NCBI GenBank assembly: GCA_964016885.1
Contig: OZ024746.1
Coordinates: 56,730,001 to 56,794,000 of the forward strand
From: Eledone cirrhosa
Taxonomy: Eukaryota
Direction: 5' to 3'
DNA: 64,000 nt
Positions 9,287 to 58,977 of this stretch are shown piece by piece. The notes below the pieces were generated by a model. The model ran no database searches. It had not been told where the DNA came from and saw only the letters and a list, made by a program, of their open reading frames with translations. A program made the position numbers and the translations under genes. Numbering within the stretch: the first letter of the stretch is position 1; the number at the start of each line of letters is the position of its first letter.

Positions 9287-9480
9287 TAGGAACAAGTGAG
9301 ACCCCGACGGCTGAGCTCAAACCGTTTCGACGGCTAATTCTGGACATTAGGATTAGCCGTCGAAACGGCTTGAGCTCAGCCGTCGGGGTCTCACTTGTTC
9401 CTATTACCCACTCTACTACCCTAAGTATTGAGTACTTTGGTGCGTTATGGTCCACCTGGTTCCTTACCACATTTCCTTCG

Positions 9481-9482
<2 letters not shown>
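9287..9482 (+). mobile_element. Family B fold-back element carrying a half-hammerhead
   Basis: Hairpin 9287-9403 (axis ~9345) plus ~80-nt tail, between (TA)n tracts; contains GAAA-CGGCT-TGAGCTC-AGCCG-TC at 9362-9384. Confidence 0.8.
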
Positions 9483-9513: not shown

Positions 9514-9659
9514 TAACCAGGCTTCAATCGGGCGTAACCACAGTAAGTAAGGTACTCAATATGTAGCAGACTATAAATATTTAATATAGAAATGATTTCT
9601 ACATGACTAGAACTGTTTCGTTCGGAAAATTCATCAGGAATGATGATTTCTTCCGAATA
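9511..9659 (-). mobile_element. Family A element with hammerhead and short fold-back
   Basis: Minus 9597-9640: ttc CTGATGA attttccgaac GAAA cag ttctagtc atg TA gaa; followed by a short inverted copy tgatgatttcttccgaat. Confidence 0.75.
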
Positions 9660-9670
9660 TATATATTATA

Positions 9671-9897: not shown

Positions 9898-10913
9898 CGT
9901 GCGTGCGTGCTTGTACGTGTCAGTGTTTGTATTTGAATCATTCAATATTTATTATATATCCTGGCATTACTCTGTGAATAATTTATTTCGATAAAATGTG
10001 TACTAGGGTCACTATGACTAACTAACTCACCTTAAGTTTATCCCTCAGCAAGGCTGCGATGTAATGACTGAAACGAATAAAAGAATAACAAAATATAAGA
10101 ATGATTATATTTGAAACAACTAAGAATTTGACATTGGTTCTCATTCATTCCATGCTGCTAGGAATAGCGCCAGTCAATTATCTTAAAACGAGGCTCTTCG
10201 TCACATAAGGTTAAACTCATTAACCGTTTAAAATATAGCTTCTTATATATTGCAAGAATACGAAGAAGACCTTACATCTCAATCAGCAAACCAATATATT
10301 TACATAAATGTAAGGTACGTTTTCACTATTTTATTATCTTCACGATATACTAATATTTCGTTTGGAAACATTTCAGATTGATATACACCGTGTCATCTCC
10401 AAGCCAATTATTTAATTATAATTAATTAATTAAGGAAACGATATGGGGGTGGTTTAATGTTATTAGATATGATATATTTCACGTTATAATTCCATGGTGT
10501 CAAGTTAACGAAATTTCCTATTCAATTATGAATGCGATACAGCATATAATGTGATATATGATATGATTATAACATGGAATTGTTTGATGATAATGCTATG
10601 ATGGACTTTCAAATGGATTATTGTGCAATAAACACCAGTTCATCTTCTAAAATATAATATGTACTGCACATAGAGTAATTACGTGCGCACACACTAACAA
10701 CAATGTCACTAGCAAAGACAGATATACATATATATGTATATACATAAGTGCATATATATGTGTATGTATGTATGGATGTGTGTATATATGTACATATACA
10801 TGTCTGTGTATGTATGTGCATGTATGTATGTATTTATGTGTGTATGTACGTACGTATATATATATATATATAAGGATAGAAACAGTTTAAAATTAGTTAA
10901 ACCATTACTCAAC

Positions 10914-11003
10914 TGAGTACTCGATGCTTGCGGTAGTACGATATGTCTATATTATAAAGATTCCGGTCCCGACGGCTGAGCTCTTGCGTTTCGACAGCTA
11001 TAA
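10914..11003 (-). mobile_element. Diverged single-arm family B relic
   Basis: GAGTACTCGATGCTTGCGGTAGTA tail and CCCGACGGCTGAGCTC...CGTTTCGACAGCT align to family B. Confidence 0.6.
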
Positions 11004-18505: not shown

Positions 18506-18703
18506 CAAAGAAGGTGTGGCAAGAAACGAGGTATTCCATAACGCACCAGAGTACTCGATACTTAGGTTAGTAGAGTGGATAATAGGAAAAAAGGTCAGGA
18601 GACCGACGGCTGAGCTGCGGCCGTTTCGACAGCTTGTTCCGAACTCATTTCGATCTAGCTGTCGGAACGGCCGGAACTCAGACGTCGGGGTTCTGACTAT
18701 TTT

Positions 18704-18707
<4 letters not shown>
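18506..18707 (-). mobile_element. Family B fold-back element (older copy)
   Basis: Tail 18506-18582 then imperfect hairpin 18583-18707 ending at CCTA next to (TA)n. Confidence 0.75.
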
Positions 18708-22016: not shown

Positions 22017-22366
<350 letters not shown>

Positions 22367-23470: not shown

Positions 23471-23510
<40 letters not shown>

Positions 23511-23511
<1 letters not shown>

Positions 23512-23556
23512 TCCTGATGATTTTTCCCGAATGAAACAGTTCTAGTCCTGTAGAAG
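23511..23556 (+). ncRNA. Type I hammerhead motif (family A, solo arm)
   Basis: ttc CTGATGA tttttcccgaat GAAA cag ttctagtc ctg TA gaa; intact core and stem III, weak stem II; sits between (TA)n and (CA)n. Confidence 0.65.
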
Positions 23557-23571
23557 CCATTTCTAGATTAA

Positions 23572-23806
<235 letters not shown>

Positions 23807-24154
23807 AGGGTGTGTAACTAGGAGTTAGCATGTATTTCCTTTTCTTATAGCATTTTAAGAGGGTCCGTCGAGCTGCCGATTATTGAGTCGGGTAGGATCG
23901 ATACAGATTGAACCTTGAGCTGATCAGTGGCGAAACGCGCGTCACCTATCAATAAATGCAATGAAGGAGTAATCAATCGTCCTTGTTATCCTTTCAATAT
24001 ATATATAGTGTCGATGACTCAGTGAAGTACTGGTGGTGGTTGCAAAACAACCATTCTATGTACAAGCGGAGTGTGTATACATCCTCTTTTTTCTTATATA
24101 TATATATATATACAATATTAAATAAATGGAAAACTATATTTATAAAACCATATT

Positions 24155-24220
24155 TATTTCATTATATATATTTCGGGGATATCATATTAACAATATGTTA
24201 TGCCTTCATCAGACAAAATA
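24155..24220 (-). ncRNA. Type I hammerhead (mirror copy, family C)
   Basis: Reverse complement of 24375-24440 with one stem II substitution. Confidence 0.7.
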
Positions 24221-24374
24221 CAATATAAACAGTTTTATAGATAAATATATTCGACATACCGTAATAAACATCAACTTCATTTGAAAAGGTTTACGCTAGA
24301 GTAAACCTCTTCAAATGAAGTTGATGTTTATTACGGTATGTCGAATATATTTATCTATAAAACTGTTTATATTG

Positions 24375-24440
24375 TATTTTGTCTGATGAAGGCATAGCAT
24401 ATTGTTAATATGATATCCCCGAAATATATATAATGAAATA
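24375..24440 (+). ncRNA. Type I hammerhead ribozyme (family C)
   Basis: TATTTTGT-CTGATGA-aggcatagCATATT-gtt-AATATGatatcccc-GAAA-TATATA-TA-ATGAAATA: 8-bp stem I with two G.U pairs, long imperfect stem II, palindromic stem III. Confidence 0.7.
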
Positions 24441-24568
24441 AATATGGTTTTATAAATATAGTTTTCCATTTATTTAATATTGTAAATATACTCCAAATAT
24501 TTGTCGAGTGCTTTTATATCAGTTATAAATATTTACTAGTTGTAACCCAACAATTTTAAATATAACTT

Positions 24569-26037: not shown

Positions 26038-27132
26038 TTACATATATATATGTGTGTGTGTGAACACAATAACGAAGCTAAATGCGGACCGCGTGTTTTT
26101 AGAGATTTTTATTTCTATCATTATAGTTATTAGGTTAATAACTTAATAAATTACTATTTGATGTTATGTAAATAAGATGCAACTTTCTTGCTGGGAATTA
26201 TTTTTATCTCTGAATGTTTTTATGTAATTTTTGACACGTTTTCTTCAATTGTGTAAATGTACTCTGTACTTGAGGATTATGTTATGGACCCGGTAAATAT
26301 AAAATACAGATTTGAGTGGCTGTTAATTTGAATAGGTCAGTGACCTAATATATGTTAGCGTTTTGTCTTGAATGCGTGTGTATATGTTCCGGGGTTGGTT
26401 GATATATGTATATGTCTATATTTATGTGTGCTAGATTCTACGTGTGTCTGTTTATGTGGTAGGGATATATATGGTTGAGTGAATTTTTGTGTGTTTATAT
26501 ATGTATATATATATATATAGGACAAGATTCAGGACCCCTACGGCTGAACTCCGGTCGTTTGATCATCTTCCTGTCAAACAATATTTTCACGATGAACTTT
26601 TCAAATGTAAGCAGTGCCATAACTTAACAAGCATAGGATCACGTTTGTCCTAACTCTGGCACTGTATATATATATATTGAAGATATATAACAAAGCGCAA
26701 CCCCTTCCTGCTTCGGCTTTATATGTCCCCTCTCTCCCCCCCCCCCTCTCTCTCTCTCTCATATATATATATATGTTTCCTATTCCACCTGGTTTTGGTG
26801 AGGCTGATAACGTTAGTATTCAATGTGTCCTTGGAAAGATGGTTGAACCAAGATTTGGCGGTGTGAACAGTTGTTTTTTGTCGTTGGTGACCACAGCTTT
26901 AGGTTCCATCGAGAAAGACCTGCCCAGATTTCATAGTTATTTACACATGTATGTTTGTGCATAGAACAATGAAGAAAAGACACAGGTCAAAGGTAGTCAT
27001 TTTTTTCATTGTTCTATGCACACACACAGACACATACACACACACGCACATATATATATGTATATATACACACACACATATATATGTTTATATATATATA
27101 TATATATGCATATATATATGCATATATATGTC

Positions 27133-31496: not shown

Positions 31497-32381
31497 CCAT
31501 CATCATCATCACCATCATCATCGCCACCATCATCGCCACCATCATCACCACCATCATCACTATCACCATCATCACCATCCTCAAATCACCACCACCATCA
31601 TCACCATCATCATCATCATCATCATCATCAGCATCATCAACATCACCATCAACATCATCATCACTATCACCATCATCACCATCCTCATCATCATCATCAC
31701 TATCACCATCATCACCATCCTCATCATCACCACCATCATCATCACCATCATCATCATCATCATCATCAATATCACCATCATCATCACTATCACCGTCACC
31801 ACCATCATCATAATCAACATCATCATCGTCTTCATCCTCATCATCACCATCCTCATCATCATCATCACCATCACCATCACCGTCACCACCATCATCGTCT
31901 TCATCATCATCATCGTCTTCATCATCACCATCATCAACATCACCATCATCATCACCATCTCCACCACCATCATCATCATCACCATCATCATCATCACCAT
32001 AATCATCACCATAACCATCACCATAGCAATGATTATCGGGATTCACAATCATCATCATCACATCATTATCATTATAATCGTCATTCTCAACACCATATGG
32101 TAAAAAAAAAAGGGCAACGACAGCCCCGCCACAAATACGTCACCATCACCATCATCACTGTAATCACGACCAACATCATTATCATCAACAATTACAACAC
32201 GATCACCGCCATCATCATCATCACCATCGCCATCATCGTCATCAGCGCCATCATCATCATCATCATCGTCGATATAAGAAATAAACAAAATGATCTCTTT
32301 TCAACATCTAGGTCATGATCATAATGATAATCATTTTAACCATCAGAATGATGACCATAATTATACTTATCATCATCATCG

Positions 32382-32427
<46 letters not shown>

Positions 32428-34787
32428 TACCATCATCATCATCATTATCGTGATCATCAGCATCATCACCATCATCATAACCAATGTTATCATCATCAAC
32501 ATGATCACCTTGATCATCAACATCGTCATCATGATGATGATCATCATTAACTTCCCCACCACCAGCAAACACAACAGCAACAATACCGCAGCTGCCACCA
32601 TGACACCCAGCACTACCATCATCATCAGCATCATCAACATCCTCTTCCAATCGTCACCAACGTTTACCATCAAAACGCCAACATCATCATCATCGTCAAT
32701 ACTAATATCGAGAATTTACTACAGAAGGATTAACATACAGACAAAACCTCTAACACCACCACCAATACCAACCACAACAACACCACGACCACCACCACCA
32801 CCACCACCACCACCAACATTAACATCAACAACCCCACCACTACCACCACCAACATCAACAACAACAACCCCACCACCACCATCACCAACATCAACAACAA
32901 CAACCCCACCACCACCACCACCATCATCAACAACAACCCCACTACCACCACCAACATCAACAACAATCCCACCACCAGCACCACCACCACCACCAACATC
33001 AACAACACCAACCCCCCCCACCACCACCACCATCAACAACAACAACCCCACCACCACCATCATCAACAACAGCCCCACCACCACCAGCAACATCAACAAC
33101 CCCACCGCCACCACCACCACCACCACCATCATCATCAACAACCACCCCACCACCAACAACAACAACAACCCCACCACCACCACCACCACCACCAACATCA
33201 TCAACAACCACCCCACCACCACCACAAACATCAACAACAACCCCACCACCACCACCAACATCAACAACAACAACCCCACCACCACCACCAACATCAACAA
33301 CAACAACCCCACCACCACCACCAACATCAACAACAACCCCACCACCAGCACCACCACCACCAACAACAACAACCCCACCACCACCACCACCACCAACATC
33401 AACAACAAAAACCCCACCACCACCAACATCCTCAACAACAACCCCACCACCACCACCAACATCAACAACAACAACAACACCACCACCACCACCACCACCA
33501 GCATCATCAACAACAACCCCACCACCACCATCATCAACAACAGCCCCACCACCACCAGCAACATCAACAACCCCACCACCACCACCACCACCATCATCAT
33601 CAACAACCACCCCACCACCAACAACAACAACAACCCCACCACCACCACCACCACCACCAACATCATCAACAACCACCCCACCACCACCACCAACATCAAC
33701 AACAACCCCACCACCACCACCAACATCAACAACAACAACCCCACCACCACCACCAACATCAACAACAACAACCCCACCACCACCACCACCACCATCATCA
33801 ACAACAACCCCACCACCACCACCAACATCAACAACAACCCCACCACCACCAACAACATCAACAACAACAACCCCACCACCACCACCAACAGCAACAACAA
33901 CAACCCCACCACCACCATCATCAACAACAACCCCACCACCACCACCACCAACATCAACAACAACAACCACACGACCACCACCAACATCAACAACAACAAC
34001 CCCACCACCAACACCACCACCATCATCAACAACAACCCCACCACCACCACTCCACCACCACCAGCATCAACAACAACAAGCCAGCCACCACCACCACCAC
34101 CACCATCATCAACAACAACCCCACCACCACTCCACCACCACCAGCATCAACAACAACAAGCCAACCACCACCACCACCACCACCATCATCAACAACAACC
34201 CCACCACCACCACCAACATCAACAACAACAACCCCACCACCACCACCACCACCATCATCAACAACAACCCCACCACCAGCATCAACAACAACAAGCCAAC
34301 CACCACCACCACCAACATCAACAACAACAACCCCACCACCACCACCACCACCACCACCAACAACAACAACAACCCAACCACCACCACCACCAACATCAAC
34401 AACAACAACACCACCACCACCACCAACATCAACAACAAACCCACCACCAGCACCACCAGCACCACCAACAACAACAACCCCACCACCACCACCAACATCA
34501 ACAACAACCCCACCACCAGCACCACCACCACCACCAACATCAACAACAACCACACCACCACCACCAACATCAACAACAACCCCACCACCAGCACCACCAG
34601 CACAATCAACAACAACAACAACCCAACCACCACCACCACCACCACCAACATCAACAACAACAACCCCACCACCACCACCAACATCAATAACAACCCCACC
34701 ACCAGCACCACCAACATCAACAACAACAAAACCACCACCACCAACATCAACAACGACAACCCCACCACCAACAACAACAACAACCCC

Positions 34788-34819
<32 letters not shown>

Positions 34820-36545
34820 CCCCACCACCACCACCACCGCCAACATCGACAACGACAACCCCACCACCACCACCAACATCAACAGCAACAACCCCACCAC
34901 TACCACCACCATCAACAACAACAACCCCACTACCACCACCACCATCAACAACAACAACCCCACCACCACCACCACCACCACCACCAACAACATCAACAAC
35001 AAACTCACCACCACCAACATCAACAACAACAACCCCACCAACAACATCAACAACAACCACACCACCACCACCAACAACAACATCAACAACAACCCCACCA
35101 CCACCAACAACATCAACAACAACAACCCCACCACCACCAACAACAACAACATCAACAACAACCCCACCACCACCACCACCAACAACATCAACAACAACCC
35201 CACCACCACCACCACCACCAACAACATCAACAACAACCCCACCACCACCACCACCAACAACATCAACAACAACCCCACCACCACCACCACCAACAACATC
35301 AACAACAACAACCCCACCACCACCACCAACAACAACATCAACAACAACCCCACCACCACCACCACCAACAACATCAACAACAACCCCACCGCCACCACCA
35401 CCACCAACAACATCAACAACAACCCCACCACCACCACCACCAACAACAACATCAACAACAACAACCCCACCACCACCACCAACAACATCAACAACAACCC
35501 CACCGCCACCACCACCACCAACAACATCAACAACAACCCCACCACCACCACCACCAACAACAACATCAACAACAACAACCCCACCACCACCACCAACAAC
35601 ATCAACAACAACCCCACCGCCACCACCACCACCAACAACATCAACAACAACCCCACCACCACCACCACCAACAACAACATCAACAACAACAACCCCACCA
35701 CCACCACCAACAACAACATCAACAACAACCCCACCACCACCACCACCAACAACATCAACAACAACAACCCCACCACCACCACCACCAACAACATCAACAA
35801 CAACCCCACCACCACCACCACCAACAACATCAACAACAACCCCACCACCACCACCACCAACAACATCAACAACAACAACCCCACCACCACCACCACCACC
35901 AACAACATCAACAACAACCACACCACCACCACCAACATCAACAACAACAACCCAAATACCACCACCACCAACATCAACAACAACACCACCACCACCACCA
36001 CCACCAACAACAACAACACCACCACCACCACAAACAACAACAACAACAGCTACAGTAGCAGCATCACCACCAATAACAAAAACAACAGTAGCAGCATCAA
36101 CAAATCCACCACCACCACCTACACCGTCGCCACCACCACCATGAACAACAACAACAACAACAACAACAACTACAGTAGCAGCATCACCACCACCAACAAC
36201 AACAACAGTATCCTCATCACCAGCAACAACACAAGTAGCAGCGGCAACATCACCAGCACCACCAACAACAGTAGCAGCATCAGCAACACCACCACCACCA
36301 ACAACAGTAACAGCATCACTCACCAAGACCACCACCAACAACAGCAGTACGATCACCACCAACAGCAACTAAAACAGCTACAGCTCCGAATGTCAGCAAC
36401 AACAACAGTGGAATGCATTACTGCTAGAGCAACTAGTGCAACTGCAGGCAATATGATACAACAACAACAATAACAGCAACAACATTATGAACATGAATCT
36501 GAACACCAGTAGCTGCATCAACAACAACAGCAACAACAGCAGTTG
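30158..36545. repeat. Compound trinucleotide tract (AGT/GGT, then CAT, then CAC/CAA) with higher-order units
   Basis: Seen directly; ~24-33 nt unit ACCACCACCAACATCAACAACAACCCC across 33-36 kb. Confidence 0.95.
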
Positions 36546-36837
36546 CAGTGCTTTATATATCATCAGTAAAAACATGCAAGCAGGTATACCGCCTATAGCA
36601 AGTGAACATTAACAAAATCAGTTGCAGTTTGGTGCATATTGACGGGATGCATATATACAGTTGGGCTGCAGTGACTGGAAGTGGCTTGCTGCAATTCTAT
36701 TTTATACTTGTGCATAGCTTGTGACATTAGTATTACAACTAACTTGCACATGTGGAAGTCTGTGGAATAAGGCGTGTGAGTGTATTCGTACATATACATT
36801 GCATTAACATGTATATATATATATGTATATGTGTGTG

Positions 36838-36936
<99 letters not shown>

Positions 36937-37099
36937 ATAAAGATTCAGCGACAAACGTAAAAATCAGAAATGATACTGGCAAAGAGCTCAATAGTTAAAC
37001 ACCAGAGCTAAACAATGTGTTAAGAAGCCATACAAAACTGAAAAGGTGGCCAAGAAGGCATTAACCACCCAAGCCAAAAGCAAATATATATATACATCA

Positions 37100-38581: not shown

Positions 38582-38613
38582 TAGATCGATACATAGATAT
38601 ATATGTAAATACA

Positions 38614-38797
38614 TATTTAATATAGAAATGGCTTGTGTAGGACTAAAACTGGAAGGAAATCATCAGGAAATCATCAATGCTTTCCTGATGATTTCCTTCG
38701 AATGAAACAGTTCTAGTCCTGTAGAAGCTATTTCTATATTAAATATTTATACTCTGCTATGTATCGAGTACCTTACCCACGACTGAACTCGGGTTAC
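38614..38797 (+). mobile_element. Family A fold-back element
   Basis: Left arm 38614-38670 inverted to right arm 38681-38748, axis ~38675, tail 38749-38797 ending in (CA)n. Confidence 0.8.
38681..38727 (+). ncRNA. Type I hammerhead ribozyme (family A)
   Basis: TTTC-CTGATGA-tTTC-cttc-GAAt-GAAA-CAG-ttctagtc-CTG-TA-GAAG; all three stems pair; loop III contains palindrome CTAG. Confidence 0.75.
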
Positions 38798-38882
38798 ACA
38801 CACACACGCACACAAATACACACACATGCACACACATACACACAGACACACACGTACGCGCACGCGCACCCACGCACCCACG

Positions 38883-51132: not shown

Positions 51133-51290
51133 ATAGTTATGTAATAAACAACATAAGATAATTATTTCATTTACCAGTGGTTTCTTGAAAGCAAACAAAA
51201 TTTGATTTCAATCATCAGAATAAAAAAATCCAGGATTTTTTCATTCTGATGATTTTGTTTGCTTACAAGAAACGACTGGTAAATGATAAA
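51133..51290 (-). mobile_element. Family D fold-back element
   Basis: Axis at ATCC-a-GGAT (~51232); long arm plus tail on the left, short arm 51233-51290 with stem II deletion. Confidence 0.75.
51165..51225 (-). ncRNA. Type I hammerhead ribozyme (family D)
   Basis: Minus TTTTATT-CTGATGA-TTGAAA-tcaaattttgtttgc-TTTCAA-GAAA-CCA-c-TGG-TA-AATGAAA; intact core with all stems pairing. Confidence 0.8.
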
Positions 51291-53244: not shown

Positions 53245-53389
53245 AATATACAAACAACTACCTGGTTGTGGAACCAACCAGCCAACCAGAAATTTATAAA
53301 TACATAATTTTATTATAAATCTATTATAATAAATTGAAGTGAAACCAACTTGTGCATGTGTTTCTTAATCACAACATGAACCTCCCAAA

Positions 53390-53447
<58 letters not shown>

Positions 53448-53585
53448 TTTGGGAGGGTCATGTTGTGATTAAGAAACACACGCACAAGTTGCTTTCACTT
53501 CAATTTATTATAATAGATTTATAATAAAATTATGAATTTATATATAGATATATAGATATATAGATATATAGATATATAGATATAT

Positions 53586-57579: not shown

Positions 57580-57858
57580 CTAGAATTACCCTGCGAGTCA
57601 CAAGTCCGTGTATGGTAGTTAGAGGAAGACCGACAGTTACCCATACATACCAGTCTCTCCTTTCTACCGACGTTGTCCAATTTAAAAGCCAAGGCCGATG
57701 GAGATTGGCAACGGATACGTCGCAACTAATTTCTACAGCAAAGTAAACTGGAACAACGTGAAATAAAGTGTCTTGCTCAAGAACACAACATACAGACCGG
57801 GAATAGAATTCGCAACCTCAATATTGTAAGTCCAACGCTCTAGCCACTAACCATTGCG
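57580..57858 (-). mobile_element. CORE-type SINE, left arm of an inverted duplication
   Basis: Reverse complement of 58697-58977; contains AAGTGTCTTGCTCAAGAACAC. Confidence 0.85.
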
Positions 57859-57917
57859 TATATATAAATATATATATATATATGAGTGGGTGTTTGTGTA
57901 TGTGTGCATATATATAC

Positions 57918-58246
<329 letters not shown>

Positions 58247-58650: not shown

Positions 58651-58696
58651 ATAGTTCAAATATTTGCACACACTCATATATATATATATTTATATA

Positions 58697-58977
58697 CGCA
58701 ATGGTTAGTGGCTAGAGCGTTGGACTTACAATCGTGGGGTTGCGAACTCGATTCCCGGTTTGTATGTTGTGTTCTTGAGCAAGACACTTTATTTCACGTT
58801 GTTCCAGTTTACTTAGCTGTAGAAATTAGTTGCGACGTATCCGTTGCCAATCTCCATCGGCCTTGGCTTTTAAATTGGACAACATCGGTAGAAAGGAGAG
58901 ACTGGTATGTATGGGTAACTGTTGGCTTTCCATTAACTCCCACACACGGACTTGTGCCTCGGAGTGTAACTCTCTAG
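58697..58977 (+). mobile_element. CORE-type SINE, right arm of the inverted duplication
   Basis: GCAATGGTTAGTGGCTAGAGCG tRNA-like head, CTCGATTCCC B-box, GTGTTCTTGAGCAAGACACTT CORE motif. Confidence 0.85.

Follow-up and report, generated by a model that had tools for sequence, protein, structure and literature searches.

Hairpin insertions in Eledone cirrhosa as products of a Hydra-clade Penelope-like element, and their possible origin from paired run-off cDNAs

The window analysed here, a 64,000-nt stretch of the Eledone cirrhosa genome (contig OZ024746.1, positions 56,730,001 to 56,794,000), contains four short hairpin elements whose mirrored arms carry one half of a hammerhead ribozyme. 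It raises the question of which element leaves such insertions and how their two arms come to lie head to head. All four were found where the original prediction had placed them (Table 1), each consisting of a short arm, a junction, a long arm and a tail of 80-81 nt, and all lying within (TA)n. In every copy the short arm stops at CC/TA, and the arms hold the 3' half of the hammerhead, i.e. the 3' strand of stem II, GAAA, stem III and GUC, while CUGANGA is absent, again as predicted. The mirroring of the outer arms that had been claimed for each copy held in general, although copy 2, a diverged member of an older subfamily, shows it only poorly and copy 4 has a single mismatch there. Pairwise identity between the four copies is 75-90%.

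Table 1. Copies and arms of the Penelope-like element (PLE) family in the window, with other repeats nearby.
Feature	Position	Strand	Description
Copy 1, tailless arm	9289-9345	-	57 nt of PLE pLTR, from CC/TA to 1 base short of the stop-site A
Copy 1, junction	9346-9351	.	6 nt for which neither arm accounts
Copy 1, tailed arm	9352-9401	+	50 nt
Copy 1, parts of tailed arm	9354-9361; 9362-9365; 9366-9382	+	Stem II 3' strand; GAAA; stem III
Copy 1, hammerhead cleavage position	after 9384	+	Stem I 3' strand from 9385
Copy 1, tail	9402-9482	+	81 nt; equals the 5' UTR start leading to the ORF in tandem full copies
Copy 2	18506-18707	-	Older subfamily, E type; tail 18506-18584
Copy 2, start of tailed arm	about 18645	-	Stop-site A with an extra G in front
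Copy 3	22171-22366	+	D type; arms 58 + 56 nt, 1 nt common at 22230; tail 22286-22366
Copy 4	58018-58205	-	B type; arms 54 + 52 nt, 1 nt common at 58150; tail 58018-58098
Single tailless arm	23702-23768	-	E type; between two (TA)n runs; starts at the same stop-site motif
Diverged relative	10902-11000	-	One arm + tail
Diverged tailless arm remnant	26517-26560	-	Ends at CC/TA
Second hammerhead family	9560-9660; 23510-23600; 38600-38800		Canonical CUGAUGA core
Palindrome	24105-24490		Near-perfect, 190-bp arms; complete canonical hammerhead in each arm
Small hairpin	51167-51286		CUGAUGA...GAAA core on both strands; a further family
Palindrome	53295-53542		124-bp arms, centred on a (TA)n run; two like ends face one microsatellite
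Inverted repeat	57582-57888; 58667-58973		307 nt, 92%; encloses copy 4
Low-complexity array	about 31500-37000		Long, degenerate, 9-15-nt periodicity, extreme strand skew

A Penelope-like parent for the hairpins

The hairpins are the shortest and commonest insertion product of a Hydra-clade PLE. Genome-wide counts, which throughout are exact sequence-pattern matches, gave 12,980 exact hairpins for a hairpin-centre pattern in the 3.0-Gb genome and 19,802 matches to a 34-mer of the arm, with none for the reversed control in either case, an abundance far above chance. The 21 matches in four 100-kb blocks extrapolate roughly to the order of 100,000 insertions. The outer ends are fixed and of two kinds, near-equal in number in one subfamily (9,540 tailed and 9,986 tailless), and the target is (TA)n, with a TA run 3' of the tail in 85 of 90 loci, 63 of them at an identical offset.

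A parent carrying the missing hammerhead half and a linked PLE ORF, which had been proposed from the four copies, was found among the longer copies. One such locus, L042, comprises a tail, a hammerhead, a 710-codon frame for a reverse transcriptase (RT) with a C-terminal GIY-YIG domain, and an inverted tailless copy; its ORF stop lies 1,267 nt upstream of CC/TA. The protein has 402 homologues at E 1e-20 or better, and its ORF gave no Pfam match at E 0.1. It shows DKT in place of DKG, as in the Hydra clade. At the position of the Hydra-clade RWK motif it has RWR, and its homologues have RWK or RWR. Comparison by eye with Fig. S7 of Craig et al. (2021; PMC8557442) added a CxCX5C linker, CxxC and CxH motifs flanking the conserved E and N, and no CCHH. 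By motifs as defined in the available parts of that paper, the parent is classed as a Hydra-clade PLE.

In the tandem copies L243 and L262 the order reads hammerhead, CC/TA, tail, 5' UTR and ORF start, which makes the tail the first part of the 5' UTR. The long insertions share the layout of the short hairpins (minis), with one tailed and one tailless arm and arms of up to 3.5 kb, and have the features of an EN+ PLE insertion unit, namely a partial tandem pLTR, an inverted 5'-truncated copy and a tail at one end. An inverted arm plus tail is the PLE unit described in the accessible text of PMC8557442. Two other classes were considered for the minis and rejected: a MITE or Helentron-type unit, since there is no fixed internal sequence and an RT-encoding parent takes the place of a DNA transposon, and a non-LTR retrozyme, which in the available part of its definition consists of tandem units each with a complete hammerhead (preprint 10.64898/2026.07.22.740005), whereas the minis are inverted pairs with half the motif.

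Long copies extend upstream into the missing hammerhead half, one pattern for which has 2,114 exact matches. The half thus exists as predicted, but its core reads UUGANAA (U3-A8) or CUGANAA and not CUGANGA. With it, the long copies hold a type I hammerhead of three stems round the core, with a 3-8 pair, GAAA and GUC. Over 14 long copies picked by core patterns, 85% of cells in this fold are paired, 12 of the rows have U3-A8, and between subfamilies three stem II pairs are changed on both sides; as the rows are related, the support from covariation is modest. The fold lies 0.3-5.5 kcal above the minimum-energy fold in five copies. In the window, the 150 Rfam matches listed out of 319 include no hammerhead, and five parent loci gave none at gathering score. 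The B-type long copies (L069, L033 and others) form a successful subfamily with C3 opposite A8, a type seen in many of the 100 listed matches to the missing-half pattern; judged by its core, this pairing should weaken the ribozyme.

It had also been suggested that the half-hammerheads might be substrates cleaved in trans. This finds little support because arms ending at the cleavage site are rare: only 102 hairpins fit such a pattern genome-wide, against 9,540 tailed ends of the same subfamily. A second stop of the arms at this site was also considered: among 100 listed, ∼37 end at 16-17 nt and each position from 18 to 28 has ∼5-6, in a hand count that is confounded by microhomology through shared G bases.

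A sharp inner edge and an untemplated G

Most arms, about nine in ten, are tiny and do not extend beyond a single site; about one in fifteen is long. We measured 120 arms (four anchored sets of 30) from CC/TA and found 12 ends at 19 nt or less, 17 at 20-45, 38 at 46-57, 43 at 58-63, two at 64-99 and eight at 100 or more. Thus 81 of 120 arms end 46-63 nt upstream of CC/TA and 29 fall below 46; the junctions sampled were the first matches on one contig, and some of the shorter arms may owe their length to later deletions. In the whole genome, patterns of different length counted 27,951 arms that extend to position 58 and 7,104 that pass through loop II. The inner edge is sharp and lies at an initiator-like motif within loop II. 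The A of this motif, TTAGT or TCAGT, occupies position 58, and an overlapping TCATT has its A at position 62; both resemble the insect initiator consensus. In the E subfamily, where the loop differs and stem II is longer, the motif lies 60, not 58, nt from CC/TA; 31 of 50 listed hairpins had 0-1 nt between arms reaching this homologous motif (hand count). Many edge-reaching arms continue 1-5 templated nt further, so that the run-off reading discussed below must assume a second start ∼4 nt upstream, or heterogeneity. The fixed inner stop looks new, a literature search that was thin on subscription journals having returned no report of a fixed run-off stop or a cap G in PLE inverted insertions.

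Some arms that end at this edge carry an additional base. Among 10,148 arms from hairpins whose two arms both reach the stop-site A, the preceding base was G in 1,252 and A in 330, counted at spacers of at least 3 nt, many of the A cases being A runs from the partner arm. Long copies show a G there in only 9 of 7,104, so that the extra G is untemplated; a templated-G subfamily was rejected on the same count. The G occurs in several subfamilies, although most edge-reaching arms carry none and in the E subfamily it precedes the motif A in only about 4-5 of 50 hairpins. A partner G stands on the other arm for 68 of 100 listed G arms, and hairpins with 2-3-nt spacers have it on both arms in 24 of 50 (both hand counts), the commonest such junction making up 21 of the 50; some of these may instead be 3-nt insertions templated by the neighbouring arm. 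No shared upstream exon or common leader preceded the G in any of 30 G arms. An extra G is the mark of a copied cap in full-length L1 insertions, according to the available text of PMC11702581. Where an arm terminates within the T run that precedes the stop site, as in L127, L137 and others, the junction can hold up to ∼18 added A residues in a row, which suggests reiterative slippage at the template end.

The original prediction had the ribozyme hairpin set the 5' end of the element. This was not borne out: the position of the stop follows a sequence motif, and an extra G is found there, both of which suggest the 5' end of an RNA. The reading that we consider probable, on the pattern of arm ends, is that twin target-primed cDNAs run off the likely capped 5' end of one RNA inside loop II and are then end-joined head to head.

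The stop could instead be an RT block on a longer RNA, imposed by an inner stem of loop II or by the element's own bound protein, with twin priming kept. A further stem can indeed form inside loop II, its 3' strand covering the stop site, and many arm ends lack the G and are scattered over ∼15 nt. Such a block is nevertheless rather unlikely, given the one-sidedness of the edge (2 of 120 arms at 64-99 nt), the stronger G+C stems that RT has already traversed, the long arms that cross the stop site in pairs, and the untemplated G, often on both arms. A processed RNA end, made by a splice acceptor, trans-splicing or a nuclease and not by initiation, would also yield a fixed stop; together with the U-rich run upstream of it, the motif looks like a 3' splice site, which also tells against the run-off reading, and a D. 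virilis PLE intron ends at the hammerhead (PMC4209133, in its available text). However, the arms retain the AG and often the upstream T run, both of which splicing would remove, and a common leader or exon is missing before the G in all 30 arms, which leaves processing unlikely.

Symmetry and pairing of the arms

The junctions arise anew at each insertion and sit in loop II, as the prediction had it. They differ between copies, the same junction recurs in different subfamilies, and the arms are joined through 0-6 nt of shared bases or short insertions. The predicted route to such a junction, in which the cDNA of stem II snaps back and primes its own second strand, would fit the position of the junctions in loop II, and the cDNA can form short hairpins. 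The product that it calls for, with the whole of loop II, was not found: of two genome-wide patterns, which covered loops other than the D type, one gave two matches not of that form and the other none. The junctions moreover lie on the 3' side of the loop, ahead of the copying of the stem II 5' strand. Snap-back of a single cDNA would also require the tailed arm to reach further than its partner in every copy, and it does so in only about half of them. The arms are symmetrical in length, the tailed arm being longer in 25, the tailless in 31 and neither in 13 of 69 minis, and the tailed arm longer in 12 and the tailless in 13 of 25 long inverted pairs (a count that leaves out L031 and L243, which are nested or tandem, the tandem L262, L038 with equal arms and a mini in L041). 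With the product absent from the loop types covered and the lengths so balanced, snap-back is largely refuted and retains scarcely any probability.

Pairing of the arms was followed through their outer haplotypes, which agree in 39 of 43 copies against 0.19 at random; arms of one rare haplotype had a same-haplotype partner in 64 of 100 cases, and 52 of 100 listed long arms were in inverted pairs (both hand counts), against a share of long arms of about one in fifteen. Like ends are thus paired with like, which suggests that both primers usually sit on the same pLTR of one RNA, or on RNAs from one source locus. Four of the 43 copies are discordant, the chimeric L024 differing at a multi-base recurrent haplotype, so a single RNA is not the rule in every case. 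Mismatch between the arms of one copy was 5.2 in 45 (inflated by indels), no lower than the 5.25 between copies of one subfamily, which counts against the run-off model with one RNA.

Self-priming on an antisense template would likewise give a head-to-head palindrome, and has been proposed for the palindromes at inverted PLE junctions in rotifers (PMC3846280), a proposal left untested in the available part of that paper. It would account for arms that are usually of the same haplotype, but not for chimeric copies such as L024, nor for the two target-joined outer ends, the extra G at the sense 5' end of both arms, or arms that have no sequence in common (of 30 tailless-anchored copies, four have a tailed arm that ends within the tail and shares nothing with its partner, although a later deletion is possible). 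We regard it as very unlikely. A pair of separately primed cDNAs fits the arm lengths, the unshared arms, the discordant haplotypes and the equal numbers of outer ends, and the family counts, in the thousands, favour two independent cDNAs over self-priming.

A last alternative makes the hairpin itself an inherited unit, either MITE-like or copied from a self-copying mini master. The very high copy number and the recurrence of some junctions would agree with this, but junctions vary by copy, one of them is found across subfamilies, and the one rare haplotype tested has long parents of its own (88 of 1,816 arms) and yielded no mini-only lineage. That the unit is not an inherited MITE had been part of the original prediction and is upheld by the variable junctions and the RT-encoding parent; inheritance of either sort appears highly improbable. 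It is possible that minis serve as RNA templates for new minis.

The run-off model and its setting among known elements

Under the run-off model, the element's enzyme would nick both strands of a (TA)n target, and two cDNAs would be primed at sites 81 nt apart, likely on one RNA. Both would run off its 5' end, likely a capped transcription start in hammerhead loop II, and after trimming would be joined head to head into the hairpin, likely through end joining. A tandem transcript would present both priming sites twice, at its 3' end and also close to its 5' end. The minis would result from use of the 5' set, whose run-off cDNAs of ∼60 and ∼140 nt would lack the first ribozyme half; use of the 3' set would yield long arms that include the complete hammerhead. 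The 5' ribozyme copy, being transcribed without its first half, would likely be unable to cut the message off its ORF.

Retroviral strong-stop DNA is a short run-off cDNA that ends at a capped 5' end, and in L1 twin priming two primed cDNAs are joined in an inversion. Here, unlike in either system, both run-off products are likely joined together and integrated as the main product. A wider scheme of this kind, a 'double strong-stop' behind most insertions of this PLE, would combine a dimeric enzyme that primes twice on one RNA, run-off of both cDNAs at the cap and a start within the hammerhead that disarms the 5' copy and leaves only the 3' copy to cut; the genome would then be a fossil map of PLE starts, and the same rule would account for head-to-head mini-hairpins of other PLE families and animals. 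We give this scheme a little less than an even chance.

Several published systems, as described in the available parts of the papers cited, resemble the one reconstructed here. With the Hydra-clade PLEs of Craig et al. (2021; PMC8557442) it shares the C-terminal GIY-YIG, DKT, CxCX5C, CxxC and CxH motifs, a YRDD core, (TA)n targets, a pLTR hammerhead, an inverted 5'-truncated copy and a one-sided tail. It differs in length (∼3.6 kb with a 1.27-kb 3' UTR, where under 3 kb is reported), in its tail of 81 nt instead of 30-40, in a U3-A8 or C3-A8 core that has a long loop II and escapes Rfam, and in the nine in ten or so arms that are tiny and end at or before one stop site. The hammerhead is like those that Cervera and De la Pena (2014; PMC4209133) describe from PLEs, being type I, located in the pLTR and found with a U3-A8 core and in opposite-strand pairs, both the covariant core and the pairs being already known from Schistosoma; it stands apart in its long stem III (5-6 bp) and in the fact that most copies keep only the 3' half.

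A biochemical counterpart to the two separately primed cDNAs is the green anole Poseidon in vitro (Frangieh et al., 2024; PMC11167929), where two internal initiation sites bound the tail, both strands are cut and extended at AT-rich targets, hammerhead cleavage is not needed and the enzyme is predicted to be a dimer. Poseidon belongs to a different clade, and the available text of that paper does not treat inverted insertions or a fixed inner stop. In D. virilis Penelope, an internal promoter of the Inr/DPE type drives transcription from an Inr-type site in the upstream pLTR (Schostak et al., 2008; PMC2377424). That start lies upstream of the intron and hammerhead (PMC2377424, PMC4209133), in contrast to the start in loop II that the arm ends point to here, a difference that weighs against the run-off model.

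Other hammerhead repeats accompany this family (Table 1). The second one is also present in L026, L121, L128, L197 and L201; it forms two-arm minis, and its arms stop upstream of the core by ∼3-8 nt, close to a motif that is TCAGAT-like in the long copies. The run-off rule may apply to this family as well, from another start site. The palindrome with a hammerhead in each arm belongs to an AT-rich family represented by many copies across the loci retrieved (1.28 Mb), which hold several more repeat families with canonical hammerhead cores. The Eledone cirrhosa genome is rich in PLE-type ribozyme motifs.

How the inverted units of PLEs are formed is named as an open task in the available text of Craig et al. 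(2021; PMC8557442). Because the element class, its layout and the U3-A8 core are already known, the gain here lies in mechanistic detail and not in a new system. The run-off model makes a precise prediction, namely an RNA whose capped 5' end lies inside loop II, and cDNAs of ∼58-62 and ∼140 nt that run off it, and it suggests how a self-cleaving motif may sit in the pLTR without severing the message from the ORF.
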